DNA of 57,580 bases, the filler included, from Jimgerdemannia flammicorona (Eukaryota), in NCBI GenBank assembly GCA_003990765.1. It is 3 parts of 3 records of this genome, joined end to end, with 100 filler letters (N's around TTAATTAATTAA, not from the genome) between each part and the next. Parts side by side here need not be neighbours in the genome. Positions count along the whole stretch, not along the records: positions 38,458 to 57,580 come from RBNJ01002022.1; 2 more parts are not named here. One strand, given 5' to 3'. The notes under the pieces were generated by a model, which had not been told where the DNA came from, searched no databases, and saw only the letters and a list, made by a program, of their open reading frames with translations. A program made the position numbers and the translations under genes. This document shows positions 19,061 through 55,889 of this stretch, in pieces. How positions within the stretch are numbered: the first letter of the stretch is position 1; each line of letters starts with the position of its first letter.

Positions 19061-19130
19061 TCTATAGTCTGGTAATTGGTAATAAATTGGAAGTCCAAGT
19101 GATTATAAAAAAAAAAAAAAAAAAAAAAAA

Positions 19131-20651: not shown

Positions 20652-20664
20652 TCTCTCCCTCCTT
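20652..20664 (-). promoter_or_regulatory. Polypurine tract of element C
   Basis: AAGGAGGGAGAGA on the minus strand, abutting the 3' LTR. Confidence 0.85.
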
Positions 20665-21295: not shown

Positions 21296-21377
21296 ACTCC
21301 TTTCTCCAGTAATATTCAGGTTACACAATCTTTGGCAATACTTTCAACACAGTTTCTGAAGAAAAGCTACTAGTATT

Positions 21378-23407: not shown

Positions 23408-23437
23408 GAATTGATTGCAAATAAACCGTATTTCATT

Positions 23438-26400: not shown

Positions 26401-27069
26401 AAAGGGGACCAGGCCAGGATCTGTGGCCTAGTGGTTGGCAAGGAGTCGAAATTGGTGAGGAGTGGGACTGGCAGGGGGTTTGGACCTGGAGTGCCATGGT
26501 GAAAAATTGGATGCCGCCGAAGTACTGGGTGGTCTGGTGGCGGGTGCTGAGGAGGAATGTGATGCTTATCTTCCACTCAGGACACCTTGTGGTAGGGGGC
26601 TGCTTTGACTGTGAGGAGTGCCATAATGTAGGGCAAGAAGGGGGATTTGTACAGATGCCAGAACATTGGCTTGGGGAGTGTAAGGTGTTGGGTGACTTTT
26701 GGCAGACTATTGGGGACCGCTTGGGGGTAAGGCATAGGGGTGATGATGTATGGGGGAGGTGGGAGGATCTGAGAAATCAATTGATAGGAGGGGTAGGGGA
26801 AGAGTGGATTACTCTAGGCTAGGTGTTGGCTATTTGTATTTAAAGAAGGGAGGTGACAGAGCTTGGGGAGCTGGTTATCACGGTGGCAGTACCTTATGGA
26901 GGATACCTTGACAGGCTGGTGGCTTGGTTGGGGGCTGCAGGGGAGTCAGAGGCACTGCTTGGTGGTGAAAATCTGTGGTCAGAGTGGTGGGAGAGTTGGA
27001 GTTGTTGGTGAGAGGGTGGTCTTTACACATGAAGAGGTGGGGAAGGGTCCCCCAATGGGGATAGGGTAG
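23438..27069 (+). pseudogene. LINE copy 3 ORF2: AP endonuclease, RT, C-terminal Cys/His finger
   Basis: SLNVNGL, LQD, GGDFN, RIDWI and WSDH (endonuclease); PGKDG, WRPI, LDQEKAYD, QGDPLSP and AFVDD (RT); CFDCEEC..EHWLGEC. Confidence 0.95.
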
Positions 27070-27132
27070 AGGGTGGTGTTATTGTATACTTATTCATAGA
27101 CTGGTAATAAAGATGGAGTCCAAGGGACTATA

Positions 27133-27187
<55 letters not shown>

Positions 27188-27190
<3 letters not shown>

Positions 27191-30100: not shown

Positions 30101-30496
30101 GGTAGCAATTGGGGTTCTCATCTGAGTTTTGTCTGGCTTGATGGTAATATTGGCTCCATCCTGAAACAAGGTGACTTCATTCTTGGTCCAATTAATCTGA
30201 GGGTTGTGCTGTATAAGCCAGAGTTTGCCTAGGATCAGGTCATGGTCTCCTAGTGATGCTACCTTGAAATCTAAATGTTCCCAGTACTTCTGGATCTTGA
30301 GGGGAAGTTTAGCAGCAATTGAGTCAATTGGTAAGGTGGTGCCATCTGTGGTGACAACTCCATCATTCTTGCCAGCTAATTTGGTAAGAATCTTGAGCTT
30401 GTCGATAAGGTTCTTGTTGATGAAGTTCTCAACAGCTCCACTGTCTATGAGAACATCTAGTTCTTGTCCCTTGACTAGACTTTTGAAAATAAGCAT
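27188..30496 (-). pseudogene. pol: Protease, RT, RNase H, integrase and chromodomain of element C (chromodomain end resumes at 21015-20980)
   Basis: LIDSGAVENFI (PR); VLVYIDDILIFS (RT); VTTDASNFAIGAVISQ (RH); HYDSPLAGHLG and AFHPQTDGQTE (IN); YLVKWIGYSEYDVI*EPATNL|KNSQDLI*EF (chromodomain). Confidence 0.95.
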
Positions 30497-30529
30497 TGAA
30501 TTGGCTCAGTTCTTGGCTATACTTGCAAC

Positions 30530-30945
30530 TTTGTCAGTGCTGCTAAAGCCTTTCTGATCTTGCTTGGTTGGAGACAGCTTGGTGACTTCTTTGATGACTG
30601 GTAGGGTGGCTTGCTCCAGAATGAGCTGTGCAATTCTGTCACCTTCATTGACAGTATATGGTTGGTTCTTGTGGTTAACTAGCAGGACTTGCATTTCACC
30701 TCAGAAGTCAGGGTCAATGACTCCAGTACCAATATCCAATGAGTACTTGAAACTGAGGCCAGATCTTGGCGCAATCCTTGCATAATATTTCTTGGGGATT
30801 TTAACTGAAAGGCCAGTTGGAATGAGCCTTCTTTTATGTGCAGAAATAGTGACTTGTTGTACTACTTGAAGGTCCAAACCAATGGCTCCTTCTGACTATA
30901 CTTGAGAGATCTGGGCCTTGGGGTTGACTTATATGAAATTGAGTA
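30530..30945 (-). pseudogene. dut: dUTPase of element C, between gag and protease
   Basis: IGLDLQ, RIAPRSGLS, GVIDPDF*GEMQVLL, GDRIAQLI and QKGFSST. Confidence 0.95.
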
Positions 30946-30959
30946 CAACTTCTTATTCA

Positions 30960-31201
30960 ACTGGTTGACCTTGGGTGTCTTTGGACAGGACTAGAATCCT
31001 CTTTGGTTCAGCAGTTTTCTTGAGATATTTAGTTGCAATGTAATCAGACTGATGGTAAAAGAAGCAGGCTCTAGCCTTCTTGAGATGCCCCTTTTCCTTG
31101 GGTGTAAGCTTGTCTTTTTTGTTCTTGTCAATAGTGTCTAGGTCCATGGGGGCAGGTCCAACAGTTCTGACTTTGGGTTCCTCCTTTCTGTGGTTGTTGT
31201 T

Positions 31202-31263
<62 letters not shown>

Positions 31264-33215
31264 AACTCAATGTCCTGTAGAATTTTATTGGAAGGGAACC
31301 TAGACTATATAGGCCCAAATCCTCCCCCACCACCCATTAAGCACTGCCCCCCCATTAACCTAGGCTAGCTATTATCCAGCAGCTCGACCATGCCAGGTGC
31401 AGCAGGGCCTATATTGGACCACATCTCATTCTGTGTACCATGCTCTCTCTACCACCAGGGGAAACCCAGCCATACACCAATGACCGAAAGTGCACACCTG
31501 AGAACCCAACATATATATAAGGCCATGCCCAAGCCGAATAGAATAGCCCCTGCTACCTCAAAGAGAATGACAGACAAAGAAAAACTCTTATCAAAGTACA
31601 ACATGGTGGGTAGGGCCTGGTTCTCCTAGTTGAGGTGAGTAAAGGACTTACACATGAGGTGGGAGGAGACCCCCAATACTCCACTACTCAAGCCTGTGGA
31701 CCTTGATCATATTGCTATATCAGCTCCTGGTTCCAGTTAAGTGCAGCCAAGATACCTGAAATGGGTAGCCTTGGGCCCCCTGACCCCCCCTGATGACTAG
31801 AGCCCAACTCACCAATCTGCCAAAAGAAGCTGAGAGTGACACCTACTACCTAACCATGCCACACCAATCAAAAGACCCCACTGAAGCAGCACTCACCCTA
31901 GCCCTGACGACTGTCCCTAGTCTGGCACCCTACTGATTCACTGTTATCATCCTTCCTCCTATCTGTGATAGCCATCTCCTCTCCCATCCCAACAACATCC
32001 AAAAAGCAGTCACCTATGCTAGAACCATGCTTGCTGGGAAGCTCACCAAAGTCAGAGGGCTCCACCATAGGTACTGAAGACCTGTAGGTAACCTATACTG
32101 AGTACTTGACACCTAAGGTCAGCTGACTCCCTATGTAGCCTGAGACACACCAAGACAATACCTTGTTGGTGACAGCAAAAGGAAGAAGGCACCACACCAA
32201 AACGAATGCACTCTAGACACAGCCGAAGGCACCAGAAACTATGAAAAAGTGGAGAAGACACTGATCTGATACCAATAAAGAGGCAACTCATCACTATTGC
32301 CTCTCTCCCACTGCTCTGTAATAGGTACAGTAAACCAACCCAAGGTAGAGGGGGTAATAATTATAGAAAGTGGACTTGGAAGGTTGCCTACCAAACCATT
32401 GTGACTAGTAAGGTAGTGGAGAAAGGAGCATGTGGTTGTTATTATTGTTGAAAGATGGTCTCTTCTATTCAAAGTAGTAACTATAGGTGATGATATCAAA
32501 CCTATCAGCAATTTTCATTGCTGTATCTAGGTCCTTGGGTTCTTCTAGTTCAATACAAACTTGGGTTTGACCTTTCAGGCCTCAGATATACTTGTTGACC
32601 TTCTCGTCTTCAGTGATATGTGGTAATTCTAGCAGGATTGACAGGAATTGTATATTATATACTTATATAGACTTAAGTTGTTTGACATTTGCCAGATGGT
32701 CTTGTGTAGTCTTAGTGCTGTTAACTGGTTTTAATTGGCCTTGAATAGCATCAGAGAATTCACCCCAGGTCTTAATTCAGCCAGAGAATCTGATATTCTG
32801 GACATGATTTCACCACCAGATTGCAGCATTCCCTTAGAGAAGTATAGTGGTAAATTGGACTAGTGTTGCTTCTTCCAAATTGGTCAGTTCTCCATATTGC
32901 TCCAATTGGAAAAGCTAGGCATCAGTAGACAGTCCTCCTCTTTGACCATCAAAAGTGTTGGGCTTTTGGGGCTTGATAGTGACTGTTGTCAGATATATTG
33001 ATGTTGGTAGAGGTACAGAGGTATGAGCAGAAGCCTTGCTTTCCTTTCTTTCTATATGTTCTTGAAGTTGAGCAATCTGAGCTAATGCAGTCTGAAAAAG
33101 ACTCTTGATGGCCCCATTTGACTGAGTAGGGTTTTGCTATTCCTCTTCTTCTTGCTGATTGTATGAGGCATTGCCTGGACCATAGATACTATATGAAGAA
33201 TTCTACCCATTGTCC
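30960..33215 (-). pseudogene. gag: Gag of element C, split by the retroposon at 31205-32430
   Basis: IKPQKPNTFDG, GNAAIWW, DEKVNKYI*GLK, GPAPMDLD and decayed knuckle ACFFYHQSDYIATKY. Confidence 0.85.
31205..32430 (-). mobile_element. Non-autonomous ~1.2 kb poly(A) retroposon (SINE-like, non-coding), copy 1
   Basis: Poly(T) 31203-31259 with AATAAA upstream on the minus strand; 16-bp TSD TGTGGTTGTTGTTGTT (31189-31204) / TGTGGTTGTTATTATT (32431-32446); second copy at ~55890-56302. Confidence 0.88.
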
Positions 33216-33270
33216 TCCATAGTGTTGTGACTGATATCTTGAGAGGTATCTTAATAAGGTTAGGTGTAAC

Positions 33271-33285
33271 CACCTGCTGCTACCA
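33271..33285 (-). promoter_or_regulatory. Primer binding site of element C (initiator tRNA-Met-like)
   Basis: TGGTAGCAGCAGGTG, 2 nt downstream of the 5' LTR; TGGTAGC is complementary to the GCTACCA 3' end of initiator tRNAs. Confidence 0.8.
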
Positions 33286-33287
33286 AG

Positions 33288-33691
33288 TGTAATAGTTCTA
33301 GTTTCTAAATGAGAAAGTGACTAGTTCTGGTAGTTCTAAGTAGCTCGAAGAGATACTAAGGATTCAAGTGTTCTCCAAGGATTTCTGAGAGAAAATATTC
33401 TGAGACTTTATTCATAAGAACAAAGGGGATATTTATACAAGATCTGAAAGAAGGATCCAGAAGGATCTGAGAAATCAAAGGAAAATACCAAGAGGAAAGT
33501 TCTCAGCAAAGATGATAAATGATGATAAATAAAGTTCTACAAGTTTCCAAGATAATCTGTGACTAGCTAAATAAGTACTAGTTAATGCTCAGTGCCAAGA
33601 AGGGGATTTCTAAGTACACAGAAAGTGCTAAAAGGTTATAGAATATTTAAGAAAGACAGAGAAAAGAAATAAACTATGCTAAAGTGTTATA
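33288..33691 (-). repeat. 5' LTR of element C
   Basis: 404-bp direct repeat of 20248-20651. Confidence 0.96.
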
Positions 33692-36600
33692 GAGATCCAG
33701 CTACCCCCTCTCAACTCCACTGCTCTCTTTAACCACTATGCTCTCAAGCAGTATAGCCTCTTTGGAAAGTCAACCAGCCCAAGACCTCCTCTTGTCACTA
33801 GTAAGGATAAAATCTCCCAACTGATCTGACTCCTCCTTTCAGCCCAGATCTACTCCTTGGTCAGCTTCAATAGTCTCTTCACCACCCAGGCTAGAAAGTC
33901 TAGATGATAAGCCAGATACTATAACTTCAGCAGCCAATAGATATTCAAAATCAAGACACACCCCACTAGAGGCAAGTGGCAACCTCCCCAACTCTGCAGG
34001 GCCTCTCTCCAGATTACAACCCTCTGCTCCCATCAAAGTCTTGATAGGACCAACCCATATACTGATAAATAGATACCTAAGTACCACACTACTTCTCCAG
34101 TAGAGACGATTGTTCTAATAACATCCCCTCCCACCAGTCTATTGCCTAACACCATTGTTTCACACTTGTGCTAATTGAGTTTAGCCCCAGAGTTCTTCTC
34201 ATACTACTCTACCATCTTTTTGAGCTTCTCAACATCAGTGATTGATCCCAGGCTGACCACTATGTCATCCACAAAGGCCCCAACTTTCCACCCAATTCCA
34301 AAGACTGAGAGTCCTACTATTTTTCATCAGATTCTGTCTATTAAAGGTTCTAGGGAAAGAGCATACAGGATGGGGGACAGTGGGTCCCCCTGGGGTACAC
34401 CCCTATCCAGGAGAAATAACATCCCTCTATATCTATTACACATGAGTGCAGCCTGATTTCCTTTCAGTAGGATGATTATTGCTGACCAGAACTAGTATGG
34501 TACCTCAGTCCTATCTAAGCCAGACTCACTATACCTAGTCATAAGCCTTCTCCTGGTCTAAGAAGACCAGTAACCCATCCAGTCTATGAGCTTGTACCCC
34601 TTCAATAACTCCATGTACCCAGGCTGTATCATCCCTAATGAGCCAGTCTCCTACAAAGCTCCTCTGTTCAATACCCAAGACTTGCTGGGCCACCTTCTGT
34701 AGTCTCATGACCACTACCTTAGTTATCAACTTTCTGTCTATATCTAGCAGTATAATTTGCTGCCAGTTCTTCCAGTCCTCTCTCCTTCTCTTGTTCTTGT
34801 AAAGCAATGTCACCAGCTCCAGATCCTGCTCCCCCACCTATCTCTCTGACTGTAGTATAAAATCACACAGTGCTATCATCTTCCTCAGTACTCCTGAGAT
34901 CCCCACTATCTTCTTCCAGAAGTCCCAGGGCAGACCATCCTCTCCAGATACCATATCCAGCATTGTCATGGCAAGAACCTGGTGGATCTCTTCCTCCTGT
35001 ACTGGCAATACTAAGTCACCCAGCCCATCTGCCTGTAGGGGGTACCAATTCTCTAATATCTAGTCAATAGCAGTAGCATCAGCCCCACCCTCCTTCACAC
35101 TCCATAATCTACTCCATTGCTCCTTTAACAATCCAAGAATGTCTTGTATACCATGCACCAGTATACTATCAGAGTCAAGTACCCTCTCTTACCTTTGCTG
35201 TACTCTTCTTATCTGAAGGGCCCTTATGAGATACTTTGAGGGTCTTTCCCCTTCCTCCAAACTCTGCCAATAAAGCCATACCACTAAGCCCTACACCCAT
35301 GTCTCTTTCTCTTCCCACAACACCTGTTGTAATTCTCTAACCTCCATTTTTGCCCTCATTAATCTCCAATCCTCTCTCCCCTCCAATATTACTAGTTCTA
35401 CCCAATCTTTCAAGAACCTAGTCAGTCTAACAGAAGCCCATCTCACCCATCACCTCCTCTGCTTCTCAGCCTCCTTACCAGCCTCACTTCAGTAGACTCT
35501 GGTCATCTCTTTCATCCTCATCTACTAGATACTAACTGGGGCACCTTTCTGCCTCCAGCTCTCCACCCTCAGTTGAATGTTCTCAGTCCACTTATCTCAC
35601 CAGGTCCTATCATCTAATAATGAGGAATTGAGGTACCAATGTCCAGGCCCATCCCCACTCCCCCCAAAATGTCTCTGTCCTAACAGCTCTCAATGATCTG
35701 ACCATGGACACTACTCCACCTCCAGCAACTTCCAAATATCCAAACCCCAGCAGCTAGCTATCAAAATTCAGTCAATCCTCATTCCCAGGCCCACTGCCCA
35801 ATGTGTGTATACTCTTCTATCCCCCCAACACTCCCTGCCAGTATCAACCAGAGTACTTAGCCTTTCCACTTTCTCTTATACTGCCAGCCCTCCACTCCTA
35901 CCCTCAGTTCTCCATCCTCCATCAGTTCTATCCACCAGTATATCTCAGACCATATTGAAGTCTCCTCCAAGTATATCCACCCCAGCCTCTGCAAGGACCC
36001 CACTCTCCTGGAGACCCTTCACCCAATCCACATACACCCCATACAGTGGGGCAGTAACAGGAGCCCCCCATGACCAGCTCCCAGCCTATATATATCCACT
36101 CTCCCCAGACCAATCTATCCCCCCAGCTCCTTATATCATGTATCTCCCCTCTGCCTCTCCAGACCAGAATTCCAACCTTACTCTTCCAAACTGCCTCACC
36201 TCCCCAATCCTTCATCCATTCTAGCCTATCTAATCATTCTCATACCTAATATCCTGCAAGAGGAAGAGATCAGTCTTCAATTCCTTCAGCAAAGTAAAAA
36301 TGTTCCTATGTTAAGAAGAGCCCTACAACCCATTCACATTTAAAGAAAAAATATTGGTTGTACTATTTATAATAAAATATAATGTGGTATCAAGTCCATC
36401 CTCTATTGCTCCATATTTATCTCTTCCTGTGCTATGTCCAGATTATGTTCTACAGTTACCTCCACCTCTTCAGTTCTCCTTGCCTTTAATCCAGCCAACA
36501 GCTCATTCATCTCCCCATCTGTCTTTTCCTCAAACTCCTCCCAGTACTCCAGGCAGGCCTTCTGCCAGAGCTGCAATCCATGATGCTTATTCCAGTAGTA

Positions 36601-38288
36601 GTTGGCCCTCTCACCAGTAACACCTGTCAGCTCTGCCTCCCACTCCTTATCTACCTCATATCCTTCCTCCTCCAGATATACTACAAGAATTTCTGTCTTC
36701 AATACTATCACCACTCCATCTCTCTACAAGATCCACACCTAATGCTCATCACTCATTACTCTCAGGTACATCTCTCCCAACTCTTCAGCTGCCAAGTTAT
36801 TTATTATCCTATATATCCAAAGTAGGTTCCCCATCTCCTTCTCTCCAGGAGTCACTGGCCTCTCTCTCTCCAGTATTATAGTGTCAGCCCCAGCACTTGC
36901 AGACTCATTCCATACCTCCAGGACATCCACCAATTCCTCCTCTCCAACTGCCACCACTTGTCCCCCATTTGCTACCTCTGGAACTCCAAATTGCACTTGC
37001 TGGGTCTCCCACATTAGTACATCCTCTACCACCTAGCTCTGAGAAGCCAGACCTCACCTGATAAGCAGAGTAAGAGTAGGTGAGTCCTCCCAGACCTCCT
37101 TCCAGATCTCAAACATACTATCAGCATATGGGTCCTTGCCTGTCATCTCTCTATTCTCTCCTGTCTCCTTCCCTGCACTCTCTCTATCCTCATCAGCCTA
37201 GATACTCACTTTGGTACCCCCCATCTCCTCAATTCCACCCACATCCTTCTGTAGTCTACTCTCCAGCTTAGCTAGCAGCTTCTTCTGCCTCTTACATTCC
37301 TGTACTCTTTTCCACTACCTCTTGTCTACTTGAATGTACTTCCTATCTACTATCTCCAAATGAGTCAACTCAACAAAAGCCTTCTAAGCCTTCACCCACT
37401 GCTCTACAGCACTACTCAGCTCTTTCAGTGCTTCTAATAAGTCCTCTTCCTCCTTCTCACTCCTCTTCACCCTTGTTACCTTGCATAAGATTGTCCTCTA
37501 GATCATCACCAAAGACCAGTCCCTTGTCTTTCTAGTAGCTTCCTTCTCTGCCAACCAAATCCTCACATCAACATTCCCAGTCCTGAGCAAGGTCTCTTCC
37601 CAGACTCTGAATCTGATATCTACCACCTCTCTATACTTGGCCATGACCTCCTTGACTCTCCTTCTCATCTCCACTGCCATCACCATGGGCACTCCTTTCA
37701 CCAGCAGTTGAACTACCCTAGGATCCCATCTCAGACAACATGTCATTGGAACACATACCTCTCCAACAATCAATTCAGCCTTCAGCACCTCCTCTAAAGA
37801 CCCAGCATCCTCAAAGCCCACCTTTACTCCCTTCAATCTCTTCAGAAACTTTACTGATGCTGCTTCAGCCACCTGCTTAGTGATAAGCCCCAGCACCATT
37901 TTTACCATCACCACTAGGTCCTGGAAGTACAGTATAACTACAAATGCTGAGATTGACTTTTTGAGTAATAGGGCTACTACCAGGTCCATTATACTATCTG
38001 CCAAATCCCCCTGCCTTCTAAGCCCCAACTGCTCAGTCTTACCACCAGCAGTTACATCTGGATTTTTTTCCAGATTGGTAGTCTCATCACTATCAGCCAT
38101 CATATTCATCCTAGCCACTACACCCCCAGCTCCACCACCTTTACTGCCAAGAGCTACTCCCCTATATACTGCTGCCTTCCCCATCTCCTTGCCTTTCCTC
38201 AGCCATCTTTCCAGCCCAAATGCCTGCTGTCTCTCCTTCACTGTCTTGCAAAGCTCACCCTTCCAGACTCCTGTCCTCCATTACTGCT

Positions 38289-38293
<5 letters not shown>

Positions 38294-38357
<64 letters not shown>
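38294..38357 (-). repeat. Poly(A) tail of a further retroposon inserted into ORF1 of LINE copy 4 (body not in this contig)
   Basis: ~64-nt T run that abruptly interrupts ORF1 sequence continuous in copy 1. Confidence 0.7.
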
Positions 38358-38457
38358 NNNNNNNNNNNNNNNNNNNNNNNNNNNNNNNNNNNNNNNNNNN
38401 NTTAATTAATTAANNNNNNNNNNNNNNNNNNNNNNNNNNNNNNNNNNNNNNNNNNNN
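38358..38457. other. Artificial assembly spacer
   Basis: 44 N + TTAATTAATTAA + 44 N. Confidence 0.97.
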
Positions 38458-42242: not shown

Positions 42243-42450
42243 TGTGACATACACAATTGACAATGGAGTACCGGTGACTGCTAAGATCAGACGACATAAT
42301 GGCGTGACAATCAAATAGACAGCCTGACCCATTAGGTGATCATCCCAAAAGAAGACAAGATGATCCGAGCCAAAATGAAGACCATGTTATTTAAAGGAAC
42401 CATACTCCACCTCGGGGATCGGCACCAAAGAACCAAGTACCCACCACACA

Positions 42451-43437
42451 ATGCCTCCTATTCGCCGAACCAACCAGACCTCCCGCCACTCTACCCCTTT
42501 GCCTGGCCCAAAGACCCTGATCTTTGAAGCTATCAAGATGGCCATCTGGCGCCCAGATACTTCCGAACACTTGAACTTCTACACCGAGGACCTTGGACAC
42601 TTCATCAACTACCGGTATATCATGACCCAACAGCTCAAAGATACTACTGAACGAATGACCCTCTGGCATGACTATGAAATCAGATACCGTCTTTGCAATG
42701 AGACTCAAGAAGATGACTGGGAAGGCCTCATTACCAAATTGATAACCACTAGCCGGCTAATCAAGAGAGCCCTCCGTGTCCACCAAATCTTCCACCATAT
42801 TCCCTGGGCCATAGCATACTTGCAAGGAGTAATGGCTGGCAGCCTCTCCTGCCTTTCAACTGAAGATACTGACTGGATAGAATCTGAAGTAGCCAACGCT
42901 ATTGGCAGCAACTGCATCGCTATAGGAAGCCAACAAACTGAACCTACTCAGCCAGGTTTCCACACCACCCCACTCTGAGACAACCATCAAGGTCACCTAA
43001 TGAGTCTTATGGAGATATTTGAAGGACTGCCCATTACCATAGAAGCACCTGTTGGAGCTACCCCAACCACCCACCACCTTGTCAGCCACAATTCACACCT
43101 CATCATTTGGGAACCGAATCAAGAAGAAGCCCAAGAGGTTCCTGTCTTTGAAGAGGAGGCCCAAGAACTCCAAGGCCCTGCCCCTGAAGAAATCCCCTCT
43201 GACACTGAAACTGATGAGTCTTCAGAAGAAGAAGAGGAGCAACAGAGAGTCTACCAGTCCTCTGTCCGCATTCAAGCAATTCAGGGACTGGAAAATGTTG
43301 TTGAAGATGACTGGCCACTTTTCTACCCCCTCACCTCTTGGCCAGTGCTTCCCCCCTTTGAGGAGAGATATGATGAAGAAGAAATCACAACCCAGTAAGA
43401 TTTACCCACCGCAGATGAAGGGTACTATTCCCTCTAG
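42451..43437 (+). pseudogene. LTR(U3)-encoded ORF-U of element E, ~328 codons with two in-frame stops
   Basis: ORFs 42451-42978 and 43000-43398 share a frame; stops TGA (42976, likely from CGA) and TAA (43396; CAA in the 3' LTR copy). Confidence 0.8.
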
Positions 43438-43470
43438 AGTACTGCCCATCAGCCATGAGAACCCGGCTTT

Positions 43471-43731
43471 TGTCAGCAAGTCTGTTTCCAGCATTGCTAC
43501 CCAGTACCACCATTTTCAGCATTTTTGTCAGCAAGTCCATTTCCAGTGTTGCTACCCAGTACCACCGTTTACAGCATTTTTGTCAGCAGGTCCGAATTCA
43601 GCATTGCCACCCTCCACAACTGCTTCTGGCAACAATCATCATATCATGTCAGCTCATCCGAATCCAGCATTGCTACCCAGTACTACTATTTTCAGCATCT
43701 TGTCAGCAGGTCCGAATTCAGCATTGCTATC
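43471..43731 (+). repeat. Tandem ~55-bp repeats (about 4.5 units) upstream of the LTR TATA box
   Basis: Units starting TGTCAGC at 43471, 43526, 43581, 43647 and 43701. Confidence 0.85.
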
Positions 43732-44644
43732 TCTTATAACCCAATCCATAGTAAACAATAGCCTGCACCTCACATCGTGCAAGCCAATAGCATAGCAAAT
43801 GTTTGCCACAACATAGTATACCTTAGCCATGCCCATAGCTAGCAAACTTGTATAAATAACCCATATTCTTAGAGTGAATAAACCTCAGCCAGTTTGTGTT
43901 TAAAAGTAAAAAGGAATTACCGAGAAACCTCACTGCCTCAAAGAGACCAGATAAATTCTGAGAACAAGATAATAACCTAGAGCAACAGATCGCTCGGAAG
44001 TTTGAGTTAAAGAATTTTCTCTTGCCATGGAAAGAAAACATTACCCGACCGCTGCCATTCAAGACCCAAGACCCAGCCAAGGATTCAAGACTACGACCTC
44101 CATGTATTCAGACCGCCATTCAGACTGCCGCCATTTGACTGCCACTCGAGATTCAAGACCCAGAAACCCAAGGATACCCAGCCAAAGGATACTAGACCGC
44201 CAAAGACTGACCCACTGCCAAGATACTCGAATGACTGCCAAAGACCCAAGTTATCTCACCCTTTCAAGTTAACAAGTCAAGACAGACGAGCGAGCCGTCG
44301 ACTGATTCCCGACCTACTGCGCCACAAACTGCTTAAAGCCAAGGCCATTGCCACATAAATTCAAGTTCACCACCAAGTTAATCGCCACCAGGAATGCCCT
44401 TATCCACTAAACAATTGAGCCACCATCGTTGAACAACTGAATGACCTCATCATCAAACAATTGAGCCATTGTCAAACAATCGAGCTCCTGCTATTATCAA
44501 TTACTGCATGAATCGAACAACCTGTCATATGACCATCAACCCGCGAACATCACCAATGTCTTCAGTTATCCATCGCATGCTTCACTAGTGGCATACATTG
44601 AGCCGTGCAGTTGAAGTTCATTATACAAACTGCACGCCACATAT

Positions 44645-44662
44645 TGGGGGCTCCACCAGGAA
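44645..44662 (+). promoter_or_regulatory. Primer binding site of element E (tRNA-Pro-like)
   Basis: TGGGGGCTCCACCAGGAA, 3 nt after the LTR; resembles the tRNA-Pro PBS TGGGGGCTCGTCCGGGAT. Confidence 0.75.
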
Positions 44663-44710: not shown

Positions 44711-46550
44711 GTGAAGAACTTAGCAGGACCAAGTCAGCAACCAAACCAGGGGCAGCAACAGCCCTCCTCAGCAGAAAAGAAAGCCCACACCCTTGTCAGA
44801 ACAGTAGCCAGGACCCTATTCAACACCAGTAGCCAGAAAACCGAATCAGAAGAAAGAAGTGACCCAGATTATGGTTTGACTTCAAGAGAAAGGAGACGAC
44901 TCAGAGGACAACCAGAACTACCCCTTCAGATCCAAGACTTAGGCCAAGAAGAAGAAGCGGATATTCCCGAGGAGTATCAGACTCTTATCCATAGGAAGAA
45001 CTCAGACAGAAGTGACTACATAACTACTGTTGTTACTCAAGTCACTCCACTAGACTGGGTTTACTTTGAAACATCAGAAGGAGAAGAGGACTACCATCCA
45101 TATCAACCAGAGCAAGACAATGATTGGGGATCAGACCATCAAAGGGACGAATTCAACCTATACTATTATCCAGACAGCGACACAGACCCACAACAGGCAA
45201 ACAAGACTTCACTACTTCACAACAGCAAGGGGCAGATGAACTCACTATCAGTTATATCAGTCCACTCCCACCATCAGTTGCTTGAACTTCAGTACCCTGG
45301 TCACTCACACCTTGCCACTATCACCAGTCAATCAGAAGATCTCCACCACTATCCAGGACTTCAACCCCAGCATTAATTAGAAGAGCCAGATTACCCTCAC
45401 CCTCACCAAGACACCACCCTCTGCCAGCACCACTAGACCATCAAGTACTAGCACCACCACCTTCCCCATCACCCCAAGGATTTACCAGATCTCCTACCCC
45501 TGAACAATACTCAGATAGTGAAGATGAGCCAGATATGAGCTACCTTCAGAAGTTCCATGGTGCTGACAATGAAGATATCAAGGAATTCTTTGGAGAAATT
45601 GAAGTTCAAGCAGCTGCCAAACAATGGGATGCTGCAAGAAAACTCAGAATTGTGGAGTCACTTCTGAGAGGACCCGCCCTACAGAGATATAATCAAGCCA
45701 AGTAAGCCAGAGGAGGAATCCATATCGAGGAACTGAATGATGGCCTTCAACCTGATAGAAACCATGTAGCAAGATATATGATTCACAAAGCCTGGCTCCA
45801 TGCCCAGTTCAATGGATTCAAGCGCCAACAAGAAGCATAGAAGGCTTTGACCTATATGAGCCAAGCTGCCAATGAAACTCCCAAGTGTTTCTACCATTGG
45901 ATTCAAGCTCAAATGATTAAGGTGAACCTTCAACCAGCAGTTCAACTGGCTCTAGCCTCAACTACCTTCCTCAATGGCTTATACCCAGAACTCTGAAGGC
46001 AAGTTATCAGGATGGGATATCGAAACATTGAACAGCAAGTTGCTGGAGCACAAGGATGTTGGGAAGCAGATTATAGACCAGTACAACAAGTACAAGGCTA
46101 TCCTGAGCCAATCTGAGCTGAAACCCCACCTGCTTTAACTGTGGAAATCAAGGCCACATCCAGAGGAATTGTCCAAGGAACCAATCCACCCAGTCCAATG
46201 ACAGAAATATCAACCTCTTTCAGGTAGATGAAGAGACTCAGGAGATGGAAGAAGAAGCAGCCTGGCTCCATGATCAAGAGGACGACATCTACCCATACTT
46301 CGAGGCTTTTCCATCCAAGGTGACATAGGAAGCTGCCCCTGTAGAGACCAGAGGATGAGGAAGACCATGAAGGAATCCCCCATCTCAACTGCCAGTAACG
46401 GTATCCACTGGCAAGCATCCGTGACATGGCCATTCTTCTTCAGACACTCCACAAGAACAGGAGAAGTGAGTTAGAAGAGATACTCCTGAACCAGAAGCCG
46501 GACCATCTAGGACAACCCCCAGCTCTACCCTGCCAGACCTTGAAGAAGAT
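44711..46550 (+). pseudogene. gag: Gag of element E (long low-complexity N-terminus, capsid-like region from ~45535)
   Basis: QKFHGADNEDIKEFFGEIEVQAAAKQWD...LLRGPA and TFLNGLYPEL, typical retrotransposon capsid signatures. Confidence 0.75.
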
Positions 46551-46859
46551 GAGCATATGAGCATAGAATCTTCAGCTGACAAAATGCCCATCAGGAATGA
46601 GAAACTATATCCCAAGGGACCAAGACACCGAAGGAGCAGCAAGCCCCATACAGCAGCCTCACTTTGGGAACATATCCGCCTACAGAATGCTGGTCTTACA
46701 GTTGAGCAAGTCCTCAAGAATGTACCAGAGGTCAGGCGAAAATTCCTGAAAGAAGCCAAGGAAGATACCAAGAGACTTCCAGTCCAAGGACCACACACTC
46801 AAGAACCTAGCACTATCCACACAGTCCATGAGAGCCAGCGACATGAACATCAATCTACA

Positions 46860-47225
46860 AGACTTGCCAATGGAAAAGTGTATGGTGAAAATGCCAGAAT
46901 TCTTGTTGATACTGGAGCAGCAGTATGCATCATCACCCAAAGGATGTTGGAGCAAATTGGATGGGGAATATATGAAGGAACCAAAGCAAGAGTTATCATG
47001 GCCGACAGATCAGCTTCCACACCCCTTGGACTTGTCAGAGACATCCCCATTCAAGTTGGAAAGGCCTGCCTCAATGTACCCAAAGCTGTCATGACCCCCA
47101 CAACCTCCTATGATCTGATCCTGGGAACTGACTGGTTGAGCCGAGTTGGAGCCAATGTAGATATCAAGAAACAACTCCTGGTCTTCTCCATTCATGGACA
47201 GAAGCACAAGGTGCCCATTGACTTG
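46860..47225 (+). pseudogene. pol: Aspartic protease of element E
   Basis: ARILVDTGAAVCII and YDLILGTDWL within ORF 46557-47591. Confidence 0.93.
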
Positions 47226-48324
47226 AAAGGATCATCAAAAAGGACGAATCAAGCCTCAGAAACAGAATGGCAAGGACATGGTGACACCCCCACTACTACT
47301 GAGGATGAAAGCAAGGCAAATTTCCTGCAAGAACTAGGAAGTGATTTTGATACCCCAAGGGACCAAGAAAGCGAACAAGAAGACTCTTTCATTGGAGTTA
47401 TTGGTGTTGAAGGTCTGGAAGAAAGCATTGATAGAGCCATTAATGCAAGGGCAGTACTTGAGTTTGCAGGACCTTCTGCTCAACCACCACCACCACTGGT
47501 AGAAAATTGGATCATGCAAGCCTTTCATCGAGGCATATGTGAACATTTTATCAGCTTCCACTCACCAAGAGATGATTGCAGCAATTGCTGAATCCTGGAT
47601 CTCAAGAAGGTTCCAATGCCAGGAATTGATGATAAGGACGAATTGAATCAAGCACCATCCCACAGCCGAATACAACCTCCAACCCCGAAGACCTTCAAGA
47701 AGACCTATAAGGAAGGACAGAAGATCCTTGCCCACCAAACATTCGAGTCCCTTACCATCGAAGGAGAAAGCAACAGCTCTTACACTATCACCCAGGCCCT
47801 CCAGATCACACAGCCCACCTATGACAAGTATCGGAAGAGATTCCCTACCAGTAGGGAGGTCAAATAGTGAAATGAAGACTTTGTCAAGAAGGGACATTGT
47901 GATTGTGGAAAAACCTTTACCTGCTACTGGTGTGAACATCGAGATGTTCACCTCAGCGAAGATGTCTACAAGAGCTGAGTCAAGAGAAAGGATCCCACCC
48001 TGCAAGAACCTCGAATTCACTGGGCCTGTCGGAAGTACAAAGAAATCAACCATAAAGGAGATTGCAAGTTTAAGAGCAAGACCTCTATCTGGGACCTACC
48101 ATTAGAAGTTCTTGCTATCATTCGCTGGTACTGCTGCCCTCATCAAGGAAAAGAAGATATCAATCTTACCTTCCTCCTTATGGAAGCTCTGGACCTTCTA
48201 GGAAAGACTGGATTCAATTATACAAGAAACTCGAAGACAGGAGCTCACTGGCCTTTCTTCAAACCGGAGCACATGGACTTCTCACCTACAATGGCAACAG
48301 CTGAAGTGCCATTTCTCAAAGCTC

Positions 48325-48740
48325 AACCAATTATCCAGGTCAAGCTGCTTTCACCCTGGGCACAGCCATCTCTTGCACAAATAGAAGGATCAGTTGGTTA
48401 TGACCTCTGCCTCTCCTACTAAGCAAGAATTTAACCCAGAAGTACCAGGACTTTTGATCTATAGATCGCACTTGCTATACCATCTAGGCATTATGGACAA
48501 TTGGTCTCAAGATCCTCATGGGCAACCAAAGGAATCACAGTAGAAGGAGGAGTCATCGATCAGGACTACCGAGGTCCCTTGAAGGCCATTATCCACAATT
48601 CTAGTAGAACCAGCCAATTCTTCAGTCCTATGGAAGCCATCTGCCAAATCCTGTTTATCAAGACATCACAGCTGACCATCCAAGAGGTAGACCAACTAGA
48701 AGATACCAACAGAAGACAAGGAGGCTTTGGAAGCACCAAT
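48325..48740 (+). pseudogene. dut: dUTPase of element E, between protease and RT
   Basis: GSVGYDL, LVSRSSWA, GGVIDQDYRGPL, ICQIL and RRQGGFGST. Confidence 0.95.
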
Positions 48741-49329
48741 AGAAATCTACAGACACCACCTATCGAGGTTCATTTGGCAACAGTTGCTCAATTCCGACAA
48801 ATGAGACCCCATATCTGCTGCCCAATCCGAGCAAGAGAAGACATCCTCCTGCAGCCCTACCAGCAAAAAGGCCTAGATGTGCATCTACCAGTAGAAGCAA
48901 ACAACTTGATATTTGCACCATCACTGGAGCTTCAAAAGGAATACCACATCCTCCTGACTGAAGAACGAATTCATGACCAGATGTCACCAATCCACATCCC
49001 TATCAGAAACTCGGGCTTCGAAGTGATAACTATCCCCAAGGGAACAACACTGGGATATTTCGAACCACTGATAGACACCTACGAGAAAGAAGTCTTCGAA
49101 TTCTTGGGAAACGGCAAGCCCTCTCCAGTGAGACTGACGGTACCAGAGAGGAAGACTCAGCAAATTCAGCAATCAAAGCCGTTGACATCGAGACAACTCT
49201 AACCAAAGACCAGCAACAACAAATACAGGAGTTGATAGAAGAGTACAAAGATATATTTACCACCACATACAATAACTTCCCACCATATCAATATGGAGAA
49301 CACCCTATACATACCGGAAATGCAAGACT

Positions 49330-51857
49330 GATCTGACAACGACCCTACCGAACACCACATCATCTGATTGAATTTGAACAACAACACATAGATGAAATGC
49401 TATGAAATGGAGTCATCAGACCATCATCAAGCCCCTGGGCCTCACCAGCAATTATAGTACCAAAGAAAGGAGGATGGAGATTAGTCGTGGATTTCAGAAA
49501 ACTCAACAAAGTCACTACAGAAGATGCCTACCCACTGCCAAGAATTGATGACCTCATCAATGCCCTCGGAAAAGCCAAATACATGACCACTACCGACCAG
49601 TTCCAAGGATTCCAAGTAATACCCATTGTTAAAGAAGATATCTGCAAGACGGCCTTCATCACCAGATGAGGACAGTATGAATACCTACGAATGCCCTTTG
49701 GACTCTGTAATGCACCTGCCTCATTCCAACAAATGATGAACTATGTCTACTAGGACCTCATTGGAAGAAATGTACTAGTGTATATAGATGATGTCATCAT
49801 CTACTCTGAGACATTCAAGCAGTATTTGCAAGACCTCCGCGAAGTATTCAATACCATTCGAAATTCAGGACTCAGACTCAATGCCAAGAAGTGCTTCTTC
49901 GGAAAACATCAAGTCGAATATCTGTGATATGTTGTCTCAGCTCAAGGAACACATGCCGACCCCCGCAAGGTGGAGAAAGTCAAGAACTACCCAGCCCCGA
50001 CCTCAGCAAAGGAGACCCTATCCTTCCTTATGCTAACATCCTATTATCAGCGATTCATTCTAAGGTTTTCAGATAAGGCAGCACCTCTCCGAGATATCTC
50101 CAAGAAGGACCAACCATTCTACTGGAAAGAAGATCAACAAAAGTCATTTGACCTACTCAAGAAGGCCCTTACCAAAGCCCCCATCCTGGTGTGACCAGAC
50201 TTTGGCAAACCATTCATCCTGGCAACCGATGCCTCAGCCTTAGGACTTAAATCAATTCTGTCTCAGCAAGATGACCAGAAGAGGGAGCATGTTATTGAAT
50301 ATGCTAGCAAGGCTACGAATGAAATACAAGCGAACTATGGAGCCACTAAGTTGGAATGCCTAGCAGTAGTTTGGGCTGTGGACCACTTCCAACACTATCT
50401 CTTAGGAAAGAGATTTGCCCTCATCACTGACCATCAAGCTCTACAATGGTTGTTCAACAAGCCGGAGCCCTCAGGAATCTTCGCTAGATGGATCATATCT
50501 CTGTAAGAATATCAGTTCACTATTGTCTACAAGAAAGGTGCTAAGAATTCCAATGCCAATACCCTGTCAAGAATCCCGCAAAACCAACAAGAAGGGAAGG
50601 AGCCCCCACGAGAGAAGGCTGCTTCCCGCTCACCCAAATGAACCAAGAATTGCGCCTCACCCTCATCTGGAGTCTACACCATAGAAGCTTCAAGAAAGGA
50701 ATCCAACCAGCCCACAAGTTGTTTATCCAAAAGAATTTCAAGAAATTCCAAGAAGGCAATAGCAAACTTTGGAGAGTAGAAGGAGAGCAGTACACCCGAG
50801 TTCTAAGAGAAGAAGAAATATTGAAGATCCTGACAACAAATCATGACCAAAATGCACACCGAGAAATTGGCACCACAATCGCAAGAATCAAGAAGCAATA
50901 CTGGTGGCCCAAGATGAGAAAACAAATTTCAACCCACATTCAACAATGTGATACCTGCCAAAGATACCGACAAAAGCCTACTGACAGAGCACCATTAATA
51001 CCGATCACAGTGCCAGCTGGAGCCTTTCAAAGACTAGGAATAGACATTATTGGACCCCTATCAGTAACCAGCCGAGGAAGATGCTACATCCTCACTATTG
51101 AAGACTACCTGACAAAATGGCCTGAAGCCTTTGCCATTGAGACTGCCAATGCCCAGACAATTATTGGGATTCTATATGATGAAATTTTCAGCCGCCATGG
51201 TGTGCCCAAGGAAATCATTACAGACCAAGGCCGAGAATTCGTCAACCAAGCCATGAAGACCTTTGCGAGCAACTTCAAGATCAAGTTACGACCAACAACA
51301 GCCTACCACCCACAGGTAAATGGACTCACTGAATGAATGAACCAGACCATCAAGCAAGGTCTCAGTAGAACCAGAGATCAACTAAACTGGGATATCTATC
51401 TACCGGCAATTCTATTCAGTATCCGTACCTCTAAGGCAACTGCTACCCAACAGACCCCCTTCTATTTGGTGTATGGCTGAGAAGCACAAGATCCTACTGA
51501 ACCAGTCCAGCTAGATCTGTCAAAACGAGTCTCAGAAGAGATCACCCGGTTATACGATATATGCCAGCAAGCACGAGGATTTATCGCCAAGGCACAAGAA
51601 TGCCAAAGAGGTACTACGACCGCAAAGCCGACCTTGAACCCCTGCTCATTGGACAAAAGGTTCTAGTGTACTGTACCATTATAGAAGGAAATTGGAGTGC
51701 CAAGCTTGAACCAAAATGGGAAGGCCCCTATCTCATACACCAAGTATTCTCGAACCACACTTATCAACTCAAGACCTTGGATGGAGTTATACTCAAGACC
51801 AAGATACATCGCAACCGTATAAGACTCTACTACTCAAGAGAAGCAAAACATATTTGA
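49330..51857 (+). pseudogene. pol: RT, RNase H and integrase of element E
   Basis: DFRKLNKVT..YPLPRID and VYIDDVII (RT); LATDAS..ECLAVVWAV (RH); HDQNAH..CDTCQ, GIDIIGP, TDQGREF, YHPQVNGLTE and KWEGPY (IN). Confidence 0.95.
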
Positions 51858-52182
51858 ACAATCCTGTTCACTCTGTCTGTGTCATCTCCGCTAGAGATAT
51901 GACGGACATCTCACTTGGAACTCAAGAAAGCCAACAACGTTAGAACCAGACTCAAGCCCATCCACGTGACAGATATTGTTACTAAGAAATTGCCTTGGAT
52001 TACAAGTAATACTATTTCCGATGGGTTCGAACCCCCAGCCACGACTATGGGAGCCCTCGCCCTAGAGAAGGATGGCCAGTCCTCACAAATGTGCCAGCAT
52101 TCCGCTCATCCTTGGAGTTAAGACCACCCAACTCTGTATAACCCTCACCACCGAGGACAGCTCTAATTTTGCAAGAGACAGA

Positions 52183-54586
52183 TATGATGTACACAATTGA
52201 TAATAGAGTACTGGTGACTGCTAAGATCAGATGACATAATGGCATGATAATCAAATAGACAGCCTGACCCATTAGGTGATCATCCCAAAAGAAGACAAGA
52301 TGATCTAAGCCAAAATGAAGACCATGTTATTTAAGGAACCATACTCTGCCTCAGGAATCAGCACCAAAGAACCAAGTATCCACCATACAATGCCTTCCAT
52401 TCGCTGAACCAACCAGACCTCCCACCGCTCTATCCCTCTGCCTGGCCCAAAGACCCTGATCTTTGAAGCTATCAAGAAGGCCATTTGGTGCCCAGATACT
52501 TCTGAACACTTGAACTTCTACACCGAGGACCTTGGACACTTCATCAACTACTGGTATATAATAACTCAACAGCTCAAAGATACTACCAAATGAATGACCC
52601 TCTGGCATGACTACGAAATCAAATACTGCCTTCGCAATGAGACTCAAGAAGACAACTGGGAAGGCCTCATTACCGAATTAATAACTACTAGCCAGCTAAT
52701 CAAGAGAGCCCACCATATCTACCAAATCTTCCGCCATATTCCCTGGGCCATAGCATACTTGCAAGGAGTAACAACTGGCAGCCTTTCCCACCTTTCAACT
52801 GAAGATACTGACTGGATAGAATCTGAAGTAGCCAACTCTATTGGCAGCAACTGCGTTGCTGTAGGAAGTCAACAAACCAAACCTACTCAACCAGGTTTCC
52901 ACACTCTGAGACAACCATCAAGGTCACCTAATGAGCCTTATGGAGATGTTTGAAGGACTGCCCATTACTATAGAAGCACTCGTTGGAGCTACCCCTACCA
53001 CCCACCACCCTGTCAGCCACAATTCACATCTCATCATTTGGGAACCGAATCAAGAAGAAGCCCAAGAACTCCAAGATCCTGCCCCTGAAGAAACCCCCTC
53101 TGACACTGAAACTGACGAGCCTTCAGAAGAAGAAGAGGAGCAACAGAGAGTCTACCAGTCCTCTGTCCGCATTCAAGCTGTTCAAGGGTTGGAGAATATT
53201 ATTGAAGATGACTGGCCACTTTTCTACCCCCTCACCTCTTGGCTGGCGCTTCCCCCTTTTGAGGAGCGGTATGATGAAAAAGAAATCTTAACCCAGCAAG
53301 ATTTGCCTGCCGTGGACGAAGGGTACTATTTCCTCTAGAAGCACCACCTGTCAGCCGTGAGAATTGTACAACCTTCATGTCAGCAAGTCTGAATCCAGCG
53401 TTGCTACCCAGCACAACCATTTCCAGCATTGCTATCTAGTGCTACTGTTTTCAGCGTTTTGTCAGCAAGTCTGAATCCAGTGTTACTACCCACAACATCC
53501 ATATCCAGCACTAGTACTCATCTTATCCCTATTCGGTGCAAACAATTGTCACATCCGTTTTCAGCATTGCTATCCCCTACAACCCAATCCATAGTAAACA
53601 ATAGCCTGCACCTTGCATCATGCAAGCCAATACCATAGCAAAGTTCGCCACAACATAGTATATCTTAGCCGCGCCCATAGCTAGCAAACTTGTATAAATA
53701 ACCCATATTCTTAGAGTGAATAAAACCTCAGCCAGATAGTTTTACAGAGAAAACACACTGCCTCCAAGAGACCAGATAAATTCTGAGAACAAGATAACTA
53801 GAGCAACAATCACTCGAGGTTTGAGTTAAAGAATTTTCTCTTGCCATGGAAAGAAAACGTTACCCAACTGCCACCATTCGACTGCCATTCGAGACCCAAG
53901 TTATCCAGCCAAGGATTCAAGACCACGGACTGCCCGCCAATTTTGCCGCCACGAAATGGATTCAAGACCACGGACCACCCACAATTCAGTCAGTTTGTGT
54001 TTAAAGAAAATGTTACCCGACCGCCGCGCATTCGAACCGCCATTCGGACCGCGCATTCGACCGCCATTTGAGATTCAAGACCCAGAAAACCAAGGAACCC
54101 AAGGATACCCAGCCAAACAAGACCATAGCCTAAGACCCTCCAAGATACTCGAATGACTGCCTAAGACCCAAGTTATCCTGCTCTTTCAAGCTAAACAAGA
54201 CAGATGAGCGAGCCGTCAACCGATTCCCAACCTACTGCACCATGGACCACTTTAATTGACCACATAAAGAGCAAGACCGTCATGACTGTCGCCACATAAA
54301 TTTAAGATCGCTGCATAAATTCAAGTTTGCCATCAAGTTAATCGCCACCAGGAAACTTAGCCAGCATAATCGCCGCCCTTATCCACTAAACAATTGAGCC
54401 ATCGACGTCCTGAGCCACCATCATTGAACAATCGAAGTTCCACTATTATCATACGTTTCGAACAACCCGATCACATGACCATTGACCCGTAACCATCGCG
54501 AATACACTCACATCCATCGCGTGCTTCACCAAGTGGCATACATTGAGCCGTACAGTCGAAGTTCATTATACATAACCAACACCACA
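52183..54586 (+). repeat. 3' LTR of element E, with a second copy of ORF-U (~52390-53338)
   Basis: Direct repeat of 42243-44641; ORFs 52594-52953 and 52931-53338 match ORF-U; TATA 53693-53700 and AATAAA 53719-53724. Confidence 0.95.
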
Positions 54587-55889
54587 ATATAGATATATAT
54601 ATTTATAAATTATAAATAACTTATTCAGTTCTATTATATAAACTAAGTACTATAAATCAAATTAACTAGATAAAAATTCATAATAATAAAATTACTAATA
54701 AAAAGATATATCTGATTTTAATCAAACTCACTAAATAATTTATGACCCAAGAAGATATTTTGAAATAGATATTGATATTACTTCTTAATAATATATCTAA
54801 AGATATTTATATTCTTATTCTTAAAGAGATTAATAAAATAAAAAAAAACTAAACTCATGCTAAAATATGACAACCTATACTATAAAAACTATTCTTATAT
54901 ATTCTAACTCTATATCAATAGTAGTAAGGTAACTTTGAATGTATTTTGAGATTTAGTAAAAAACTTAAGATATGTATATAATAATATTACAAATCTGATA
55001 GCAATGAGATGATCAGATTAGTTTATAAATATATAGCTTAAGTTATAGATAAGATAGCTGCTACTTTTGAATAATATAGATTATACTAAAGATATAGACT
55101 CTTATATTCTTATAACTAATAGAGATATAATTAGAATAACTCAGAATTATATTTCATCTTCTTAAAGAACTATAATTGAAGTAAAAAATATAAGTAAAAA
55201 ATATAAGTAATAAGAAGGCTCTTTATCTTCTTCTTGGTCCTTATTCTATATGTAAAATATCAAAAATATTATATATAAAATGAGTTTTTTTCTCCTTACT
55301 ATCAATATTGCCTACTTATATATTGAATCTACAAAATTGTTCTATATAGCTTATCTGAATTTGTTCAAATAATACTCTAAGAAACTACTTATGAGACTTG
55401 ATAATATTTTGAAAAATTATAACTATAGTGTAAAAACTATCATTCACAAAGATCAAGGAGCAAAATTCAGATTCTATATATTTGTACTTTTTTTTAGCCA
55501 GATGTAATACCTATATTCTTTTTTCAAAAACAATACAATTCTCTAGAACTTTTTCTGAAACCATTAAGCAACTTTTTTAAACTAGATAATAATATTCTTT
55601 TTGCAATTAAGATGCTTGTAGAGTTTTTATTTATTTAGTATACTGTTACTAAAAATATTATTAACAAGAATGAAGTTGATCTATATAGCAATATACTTTT
55701 AATTTACTATATAGTTCAAATTATTATTTATAAAGATATATAGAGTCAAGAGTATCTAAGGTGATTGAAATATATTATAATTGTATTAAATAAGGAAATT
55801 GACTCTTCAAGATATCATAAGTACTAAGTTTGATAGATAAACAAAATGTATATCACTTATTATACTAGTTATAAGATATGGGCAGATAA

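Follow-up and report, generated by a model that had tools for sequence, protein, structure and literature searches.

Accessory genes separate the 'complex' retroviruses from simple retroelements, and Ty3/Gypsy elements are usually taken to carry gag-pol only, sometimes with env. The coding sequences of MMTV sag and HIV-1 nef lie in or overlap U3, and expression of both genes relies on spliced RNAs. Of the two products, Sag is a type II membrane glycoprotein; Nef undergoes N-myristoylation, a modification that needs glycine at position 2. The foamy virus protein Tas has an acidic C-terminal activation region. Foamy virus tas/bet has an internal promoter, and Tas transactivates both promoters, according to the accessible portions of the reports on this system (PMC3798896; PMC13220597; PMC8670036). 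For Ty3/Gypsy elements themselves, the accessible part of one study draws an 'add. ORF' with function unknown in some fungal chromoviruses (PMC2864245), and that of a second describes 'brtn' as an additional ORF of the Ty3/Gypsy element BcGypsy1 (bioRxiv 10.1101/2021.04.13.439636).

Here we analysed a 57,580-nt stretch of the Jimgerdemannia flammicorona assembly GCA_003990765.1, made of three parts joined by filler and referred to below as the window. It holds a Gypsy element, E, with an open reading frame inside its LTRs. On balance, we consider it probable that this ORF represents a genuine accessory gene of a new family at the 3' end of a Ty3/Gypsy group, which E carries as a cassette in U3, and which would be expressed from its own mRNA and may encode a nuclear regulator. 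The arrangement resembles foamy virus tas/bel2-bet in that an accessory gene sits at the 3' end of a retroelement together with a second TATA promoter (here a candidate), but it differs in that the LTR of an env-less Ty3/Gypsy element here encloses both the candidate promoter and the entire ORF. No sequence or fold similarity to foamy virus Bel/Tas was found with Pfam-A (13 family members), a PDB profile search or BFVD. The position in U3 is shared with MMTV sag and HIV-1 nef. In contrast to Sag, however, the protein has no hydrophobic segment that could serve as a type II membrane anchor, and in contrast to Nef it begins with M-P, so that it lacks Gly2, and has no Pfam match. Whereas sag and nef depend on spliced RNAs, a dedicated TATA-like box is kept here. 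Athila/errantivirus ORF3, BcGypsy1 brtn and the fungal 'add. ORF' are likewise ORFs carried in addition to gag-pol, with accessory or unknown roles, but they are described as internal rather than in the LTR, and the env-like ones have membrane segments. Our ORF and the 'add. ORF' drawn in PMC2864245 could possibly be identical. No paper reporting protein-coding sequence within a Ty3/Gypsy LTR came up in a literature search through titles and abstracts that covered few subscription journals.

Element E, a Ty3/Gypsy retrotransposon that carries a dUTPase, lies on the + strand. It is dead, its gag-pol being broken as well as its accessory ORF. The following parts were located:

~42243-44646, + strand: 5' LTR, ~2.4 kb, ends approximate; 78-91% identical to the 3' LTR by blastn
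46122-46325, + strand: decayed gag with a CCHC knuckle (Pfam zf-CCHC, 7.9e-7)
46470-47588, + strand: protease (Pfam)
48465-49199, + strand: dUTPase domain (Pfam, 2.6e-20), between protease and RT
between dUTPase and RNase H, + strand: RT, found by tblastx to other Gypsy copies and not by Pfam
50195-50503, + strand: RNase H (Pfam)
50545-51333, + strand: integrase (Pfam)
~52186-54591, + strand: 3' LTR, ~2.4 kb, with a short purine run (PPT) just before it

The LTR pair, the gag with its CCHC knuckle and the PR-RT-RH-IN order are those of a Ty3/Gypsy element, and the Pfam scan detected no chromodomain after the integrase. A dUTPase between protease and RT is a placement described for some fungal Gypsy elements in the accessible part of PMC2864245. 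The 5' LTR is preceded by an AT-rich host flank and followed at ~44647 by a primer-binding-like run starting with TGG, which was read by eye. Between the LTRs, blastn aligned 42250-43136 with 52190-53067 at 91.0% identity, and four more collinear pieces at 78-85% extended the match to 44630/54576. Over 1212 aligned columns, 1095 were identical; the remaining 117 differences comprised 104 transitions, of which 52 lay in CpG context. At 90% identity between its LTRs, the insertion of E is judged to be old.

The accessory ORF is present in both LTRs of E and intact in neither:

42451-43437, + strand: accessory ORF, 5' LTR copy (pseudogene), 328 codons, with in-frame TGA at 42976 and TAA at 43396
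52390-53338, + strand: accessory ORF, 3' LTR copy, with stops at codons 6 and 68 and gaps of 8 bp and 30 bp relative to the 5' copy

The 5' copy is 79% identical to an intact 325-aa relative (P0012), and both of its stop positions are sense codons in related copies (P0012 and the contigs aligned to E). The 3' copy is frameshifted by its 8-bp gap. Differences between the two copies fell on codon positions 1, 2 and 3 in the numbers 29/20/37. The pattern is compatible with roughly neutral decay of both copies since insertion. The same in-frame TGA occurs in both LTRs; either it was already present in the parent of E, or one CpG site decayed twice. If the parent had a truncated ORF and yet transposed, the gene would be dispensable in cis.

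Further features of the E LTR lie downstream of the ORF or overlap its end. The segment beyond the poly(A) signal (43900-44646, presumed R-U5) is unusually long at ~750 nt and holds short tandem motifs of 12-15 nt. A 250-codon open frame in another phase (43043-43792) overlaps the end of the accessory ORF and a set of 55-bp repeats; its length is not retained in the 3' LTR, and it is probably a by-product of T-poor composition.

A second Gypsy element of the window, A, had been predicted to contain a decayed homologue of the ORF. The relevant features, including one segment of E that is matched in A, are:

11389-11610, + strand: chromodomain of A (Pfam Chromo, 8.4e-7, above the curated cut-off)
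11834-12080, + strand: conserved non-coding block of A, 75.9% identical in DNA to the block of E over 253 nt
12343-13170, + strand: decayed homologue of the accessory ORF in A, with 7 internal stops
13168-13182, + strand: purine run right after the stop codon of the A copy, a possible PPT of A-type elements
51842-52090, + strand: conserved non-coding block of E, at the 3' end of the internal region, with ~100 nt between it and the 3' LTR

When the A copy was translated with stops as X and aligned with the E ORF, the Smith-Waterman score was 139 over ~200 residues. In the shuffle control (n=1000; mean 33.2, SD 4.8, maximum 57), 0 of 1000 shuffles reached this score, and the matching blocks that the original prediction had pointed out between the two copies were all present in the alignment. 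By these comparisons the A copy is a true homologue of the E ORF. Its nearest intact relative is the ORF on metagenome contig L001 (score 581, in the ORF frame). Element A is interrupted by a 5.85-kb insertion (3920-9772). By tblastx, it is collinear with E from the RT region, where the two are 35-41% identical, onward through RNase H and IN to the end of the internal region. This collinearity indicated that the two ORF copies are positional homologues and not independent acquisitions. Since A has a chromodomain and none was detected in E, and since their RT regions share 35-41% identity, the ORF family is common to two distinct Gypsy lineages, a chromovirus and a non-chromovirus one, as had been proposed.

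The position of the gene in A-type elements may be different. In both A and L001, a TG-like LTR start follows a purine run after the ORF stop (in L001 the run is at 1252-1263, then TG). The window does not reach the 5' LTR of A, and a nested insertion at 13244 truncates the 3' end of the element. It is plausible that the A/L001-type gene is internal and lies just before the PPT.

The block of ~250 nt is the best-conserved DNA common to A and E (compared with 35-41% protein identity for RT and ~30% for the ORF), and most of its A/E differences are transitions. Its last 60 nt also open the L001 contig (positions 1-60). The block may be a cis-acting RNA or DNA element, or a recently exchanged piece. 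By eye the block resembled a tRNA around a T-loop-like run, but ARAGORN identified no tRNA. Rfam returned nothing at gathering score, with weak matches only (E 0.31-5.5). A two-sequence consensus fold with 3 of 37 pairs compensatory was not convincing.

Database searches yielded ~15 relatives of the accessory protein, all of them unannotated metagenome fragments, several intact and 247-342 aa long. A phmmer search with a 175-residue N-terminal query against 1.84 billion representatives gave nine matches at E<=0.001. Six of these were counted as relatives (E 5.8e-45 to 6.2e-9); the other three (P0007-P0009, E ~1e-5) are long TPR-like repeat proteins that match query residues 32-74 only, and were rejected as spurious. 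A profile search gave 12 relatives, and a second round added no new members. The relatives are nameless or called 'hypothetical protein', lack Pfam domains, and come from contigs no longer than 4.8 kb. Intact forms include P0004 (342 aa), P0012 (325 aa), P0013 (271 aa) and P0005/P0011 (247 aa), and there are intact ORFs on the contigs L001 (291 aa) and L002 (323 aa). Pattern searches gave two relatives among 146 matches in metagenome contigs, none among 21 matches in viral contigs and none among 16 in genome contigs. No cellular homologue was found among the 1.84 billion representatives. No fused longer form turned up among 8000 longer candidates, which is weak evidence. With relatives that are all short metagenome fragments, a host-gene paralogue is possible.

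Three tests pointed to coding constraint. E against L001 scored 265 in the ORF frame and 46 and 59 in the other in-phase frames; the corresponding values were 214 compared with 36 and 39 for E against L002, and 139 compared with 47 and 43 for E against A. This restriction to one frame held in the three most distant of the six pairs tested. Third positions differed most across the six pairs, with pS of 0.70-0.85 (saturated) and pN of 0.29-0.49. In the four of six pairs where dN/dS was computable it was 0.13-0.25, in the direction of purifying selection, although these values come from protein-guided alignments of very divergent pairs and are biased low. Stop-free runs extended over 308 codons in L001 and 343 codons in L002, whereas the maxima after dinucleotide shuffling were 201 and 177, and 0 of 300 shuffles reached the observed run in either case. 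The start M-P-[PA] is kept in all full-length members, and at least four subfamilies that have diverged to ~30% identity keep the position, the start codon and the TATA box. The combination of frame-restricted similarity, saturated pS with pN of 0.29-0.49, and open frames beyond shuffles shows that the ORF belongs to a real, new and conserved gene family under selection. The conserved protein family that the original prediction had postulated was thus borne out by relatives, reading frame, pN/pS and open-frame length.

We then considered the signals around the ORF:

12268-12274, + strand: TATA-like box in A, 75 nt upstream of the ATG of the A copy
42388-42394, + strand: TATA-like box in the E 5' LTR, a candidate promoter for the accessory gene, 63 nt ahead of its ATG
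43468-43612, + strand: tandem repeat of 55 bp with 2.6 copies (Tandem Repeats Finder score 211), located past the ORF and before the core promoter
43851-43882, + strand: LTR core TATAAATA with AATAAA 26 nt downstream, putative genomic promoter plus poly(A) signal; the U3/R boundary would lie just after it

The TATA-like box precedes the ATG at -62 in the E 3' LTR, -75 in A, -80 in L001 and -65 in L002. In each of the five copies with DNA, the 200 nt ahead of the ATG hold a single TATA-like heptamer, at -62 to -80, and no ATG lies between this box and the start; as background, the pattern occurs 0.4-2.2 times per kb. Downstream of the ORF, the E 5' LTR has TATAAATA at 43851 and AATAAA at 43877, and the pair recurs at equal spacing in the E 3' LTR (53693/53719) and in L002 (1218/1244). 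Contigs of other LTR families match E at ~43835-43888 only and diverge on both sides. We infer that this core is the genomic promoter and poly(A) signal of the LTR, with the start site just past AATAAA. The location of the E ORF in U3, upstream of the core, is well supported by the order of these signals, and the claim that a ~328-codon ORF precedes TATA/AATAAA in both LTRs agrees with the blastn pairing of the LTRs, with the translations and with the core positions. In E-type contigs from other samples, the internal region ends in a purine run that directly adjoins the TG start of the LTR, with the ORF further along in the same contigs; the junction at 42254 shows the purine-rich run and then the TG start in X1, X2 and X6. 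This order indicates that the LTR location is a stable feature of the E lineage. None of the sequencing runs listed as containing this stretch is registered as RNA; in run X4, whose RNA nature is a guess, the ORF had low contig depth and ~43789-44031 had high depth, from which no conclusion on expression is drawn.

Comparison of the flanks of the ORF in E, A, L001 and L002 (36 pairings of 9 segments) gave three pairs with z>4. Two were accepted: the post-ORF segments of E and L002 (z 9.2), and the pre-ORF and post-ORF segments of L001 (z 6.0). The third, the internal end of E against the post-ORF segment of L002 (z 4.5; score 27, shuffle maximum 24), was set aside as noise. L001 has a direct repeat of ~33 nt (173-205 and 1478-1510), ~200 nt upstream and ~230 nt downstream of its ORF, which might represent either a regulatory motif common to both sites or a repeat internal to a single LTR. 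A further copy of the 55-bp repeat of E was found by blastn at 43663-43727. No kept motif was found in common between the sequences that precede E's two TATA boxes, so that there is no sign of a common response element; two overlapping reverse-strand 8-mers present in both sequences in the 5' LTR are lost in the 3' LTR.

The protein can be divided into three parts. The first ~40 residues are basic, and the N-terminus is Pro-rich and not hydrophobic. A core of ~200 residues follows (pI 5.3-6.7) with an invariant H-Q-x3-H-x-P motif. The tail is variable, 56-126 residues long, with a pI of ~4.05 and 21-32% D+E. In the tails of non-E subfamilies, the motifs [DE]-L-I-x-F-[DES] and P-x-[VI]-L-N-F recur while the remainder is unalignable; the LNF motif is absent from E-type tails. 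No transmembrane-like segment was detected in six intact relatives (maximum Kyte-Doolittle 19-residue mean 0.47-1.07). With hydropathy that does not exceed 1.07 and a basic, Pro-rich N-terminus, the protein has neither the signal peptide nor the membrane segment of an env-like ORF3 such as that of errantiviruses or Athila, and it was right to call it not env-like.

Domain searches gave no match to a described domain. Pfam did not match the accessory ORF in a scan of the window ORFs that did find PR, dUTPase, RNase H and IN in E. Pfam-A with 13 family members at E<=1 gave three unrelated single-member matches only (E 0.02-0.09), profiles of gag, PR, RT, RNase H, IN, chromo and dUTPase did not match the ORF, and a PDB sequence profile search had 0 matches at E<=10. 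The best score in the ESM Atlas (0.88, an unnamed cluster) was below the level that counts. AlphaFold models of P0012 (pLDDT 54.2) and of the L002 N-domain (pLDDT 66.8, pTM 0.60) show a predicted fold of a helical core, then a small beta unit, and a disordered tail. Fold searches with these low-confidence models gave best VIA-align Z values of 4.2 and 4.0, a best Foldseek E of 0.77 in PDB, and a best E of 0.07 in BFVD, with no outstanding match. Among the 50 matches listed by the VIA-align search with best Z 4.0, ~12, judged by entry title, were helix-turn-helix DNA-binding proteins (ParB/KorB/SopB/VirB, DeoR, MarR, TetR; Z 2.8-3.6), a fold likeness that we treat as a lead only. Profile and fold searches with Pfam, PDB and Foldseek therefore left the family with relatives of its own and no match to a described domain.

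Several other explanations were weighed against these data. The chance that there is no gene at all, and that conserved non-coding LTR DNA is open by accident in T-poor sequence, is negligible. The LTR is indeed A/C-rich, and other frames have long open runs such as the 250 codons at 43043-43792, but frame-specific similarity, excess divergence at third positions and open frames far beyond shuffles have already refuted this explanation. We also find it quite improbable that the ORF is a passenger, that is a host gene, or part of one, that a Gypsy ancestor took up a single time and that has no role in the life cycle. The capture of extra ORFs by LTR elements is described in the accessible part of PMC5408684, and the lack of similarity to any retroelement domain would suit such an origin. 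A passenger would however not be expected to keep position, start codon and TATA box in at least four subfamilies at ~30% identity, nor to show purifying selection across subfamilies, and the 1.84 billion representatives yielded no cellular homologue.

Two further alternatives accept the gene and differ in how it would be expressed or act. The TATA at 42388 could be the genomic promoter, in which case the ORF would lie in a very long R/U5 leader as the first cistron of full-length RNA. Leader ORFs exist, for example Ogre ORF1, and both the retention of the TATA at -62 to -80 and the fact that the ORF ATG is the first ATG after it would agree with this arrangement. We nevertheless judge it improbable: R would be ~1.45 kb, the AATAAA of the 5' LTR at 43877 would need to be ignored, and gag would follow ~1.2 kb behind a 328-codon upstream ORF. 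The core of TATAAATA, 26 nt and AATAAA is moreover the best-conserved part of the LTR across families, and this downstream core has the classic layout in which the poly(A) signal comes immediately before the start site. The remaining alternative keeps the same gene and takes the tail motifs as short linear motifs that dock a host factor, by which the protein would counter silencing or redirect trafficking with no activation of transcription. We take these motifs to resemble the SUMO-interaction, LIR or clathrin-box classes. Their recurrence in all non-E subfamily tails, where the rest is unalignable, speaks for docking, as does a core that is not basic. E-type tails without the LNF motif speak against it, no partner is known, and acidic-hydrophobic tails would suit activation domains equally well; we regard docking as rather unlikely.

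In the reading that we favour, an accessory gene with its own promoter, the PPT of lineage E lies upstream of the gene. This places the whole cassette within U3, and each retrotransposition would copy it into both LTRs. The cassette would consist of the TATA-like box, a leader of ~60 nt, an ORF of 325-330 codons and the LTR's own TATAAATA/AATAAA core. Transcription from the upstream TATA would give a monocistronic mRNA of ~1.45 kb with its 3' end at the LTR poly(A) site; the gag-pol genomic RNA would be separate and start just past the downstream core. In this arrangement every LTR would amount to a complete gene in itself. If the A-type gene is internal, the E lineage would have taken the gene into U3 by shifting the PPT.

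Regarding the product, we tentatively suggest a nuclear trans-acting regulator of the element's own expression, acting as a Tas-like transactivator or as a recruiter of a host factor. The model of a Tas circuit is drawn by analogy, because the gene is 3'-terminal and has a dedicated candidate promoter, a basic N-terminus and an acidic-hydrophobic tail. Points against a transactivator are the core, which is near-neutral and not basic, and the lack of a shared motif upstream of the TATA boxes of E; a near-neutral core is unusual for a DNA-binding domain. Carried one step further, and as speculation, E-lineage LTRs, solo LTRs included, might be autonomous promoter-ORF-poly(A) units making a nuclear factor that switches on or protects the family, in a Tas-like circuit that evolved independently and uses a fold without known relative.

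A selected gene with a candidate promoter of its own in an LTR would mean that coding cassettes can be taken up within the boundaries of an LTR, and that solo LTRs might retain the capacity to encode protein. With it, the idea that a retrotransposon encodes a regulator of its own, or an adaptor for host factors, becomes testable. Because the family lacks annotated relatives, the accessory gene would escape standard repeat masking and annotation.

The window also contains other elements. A retroelement family of 5.9 kb is present in four copies, 72-83% identical, at 3920-9772 (- strand), 13244-19125 (+ strand), 21300-27151 (+ strand) and 19231-20247 plus 33694-38294 (- strand). The best copy has one frame of ~1700 codons with few stops, an RVT_1 match only and a GC skew of +/-0.4-0.5 with a G-rich coding strand. 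No LTRs or endonuclease were recognised, and both A and a third Gypsy element contain nested copies. This third element (20248-33691, - strand) has LTRs of 404 bp at 20248-20651 and 33288-33691 that are 94.6% identical, with protease and integrase matches, the nested 5.9-kb element and no copy of the accessory ORF. Identical N-run patterns (44 N, 12 bases, 44 N) occur at 19131-19230 and 38358-38457, at the ends of 5.9-kb copies.
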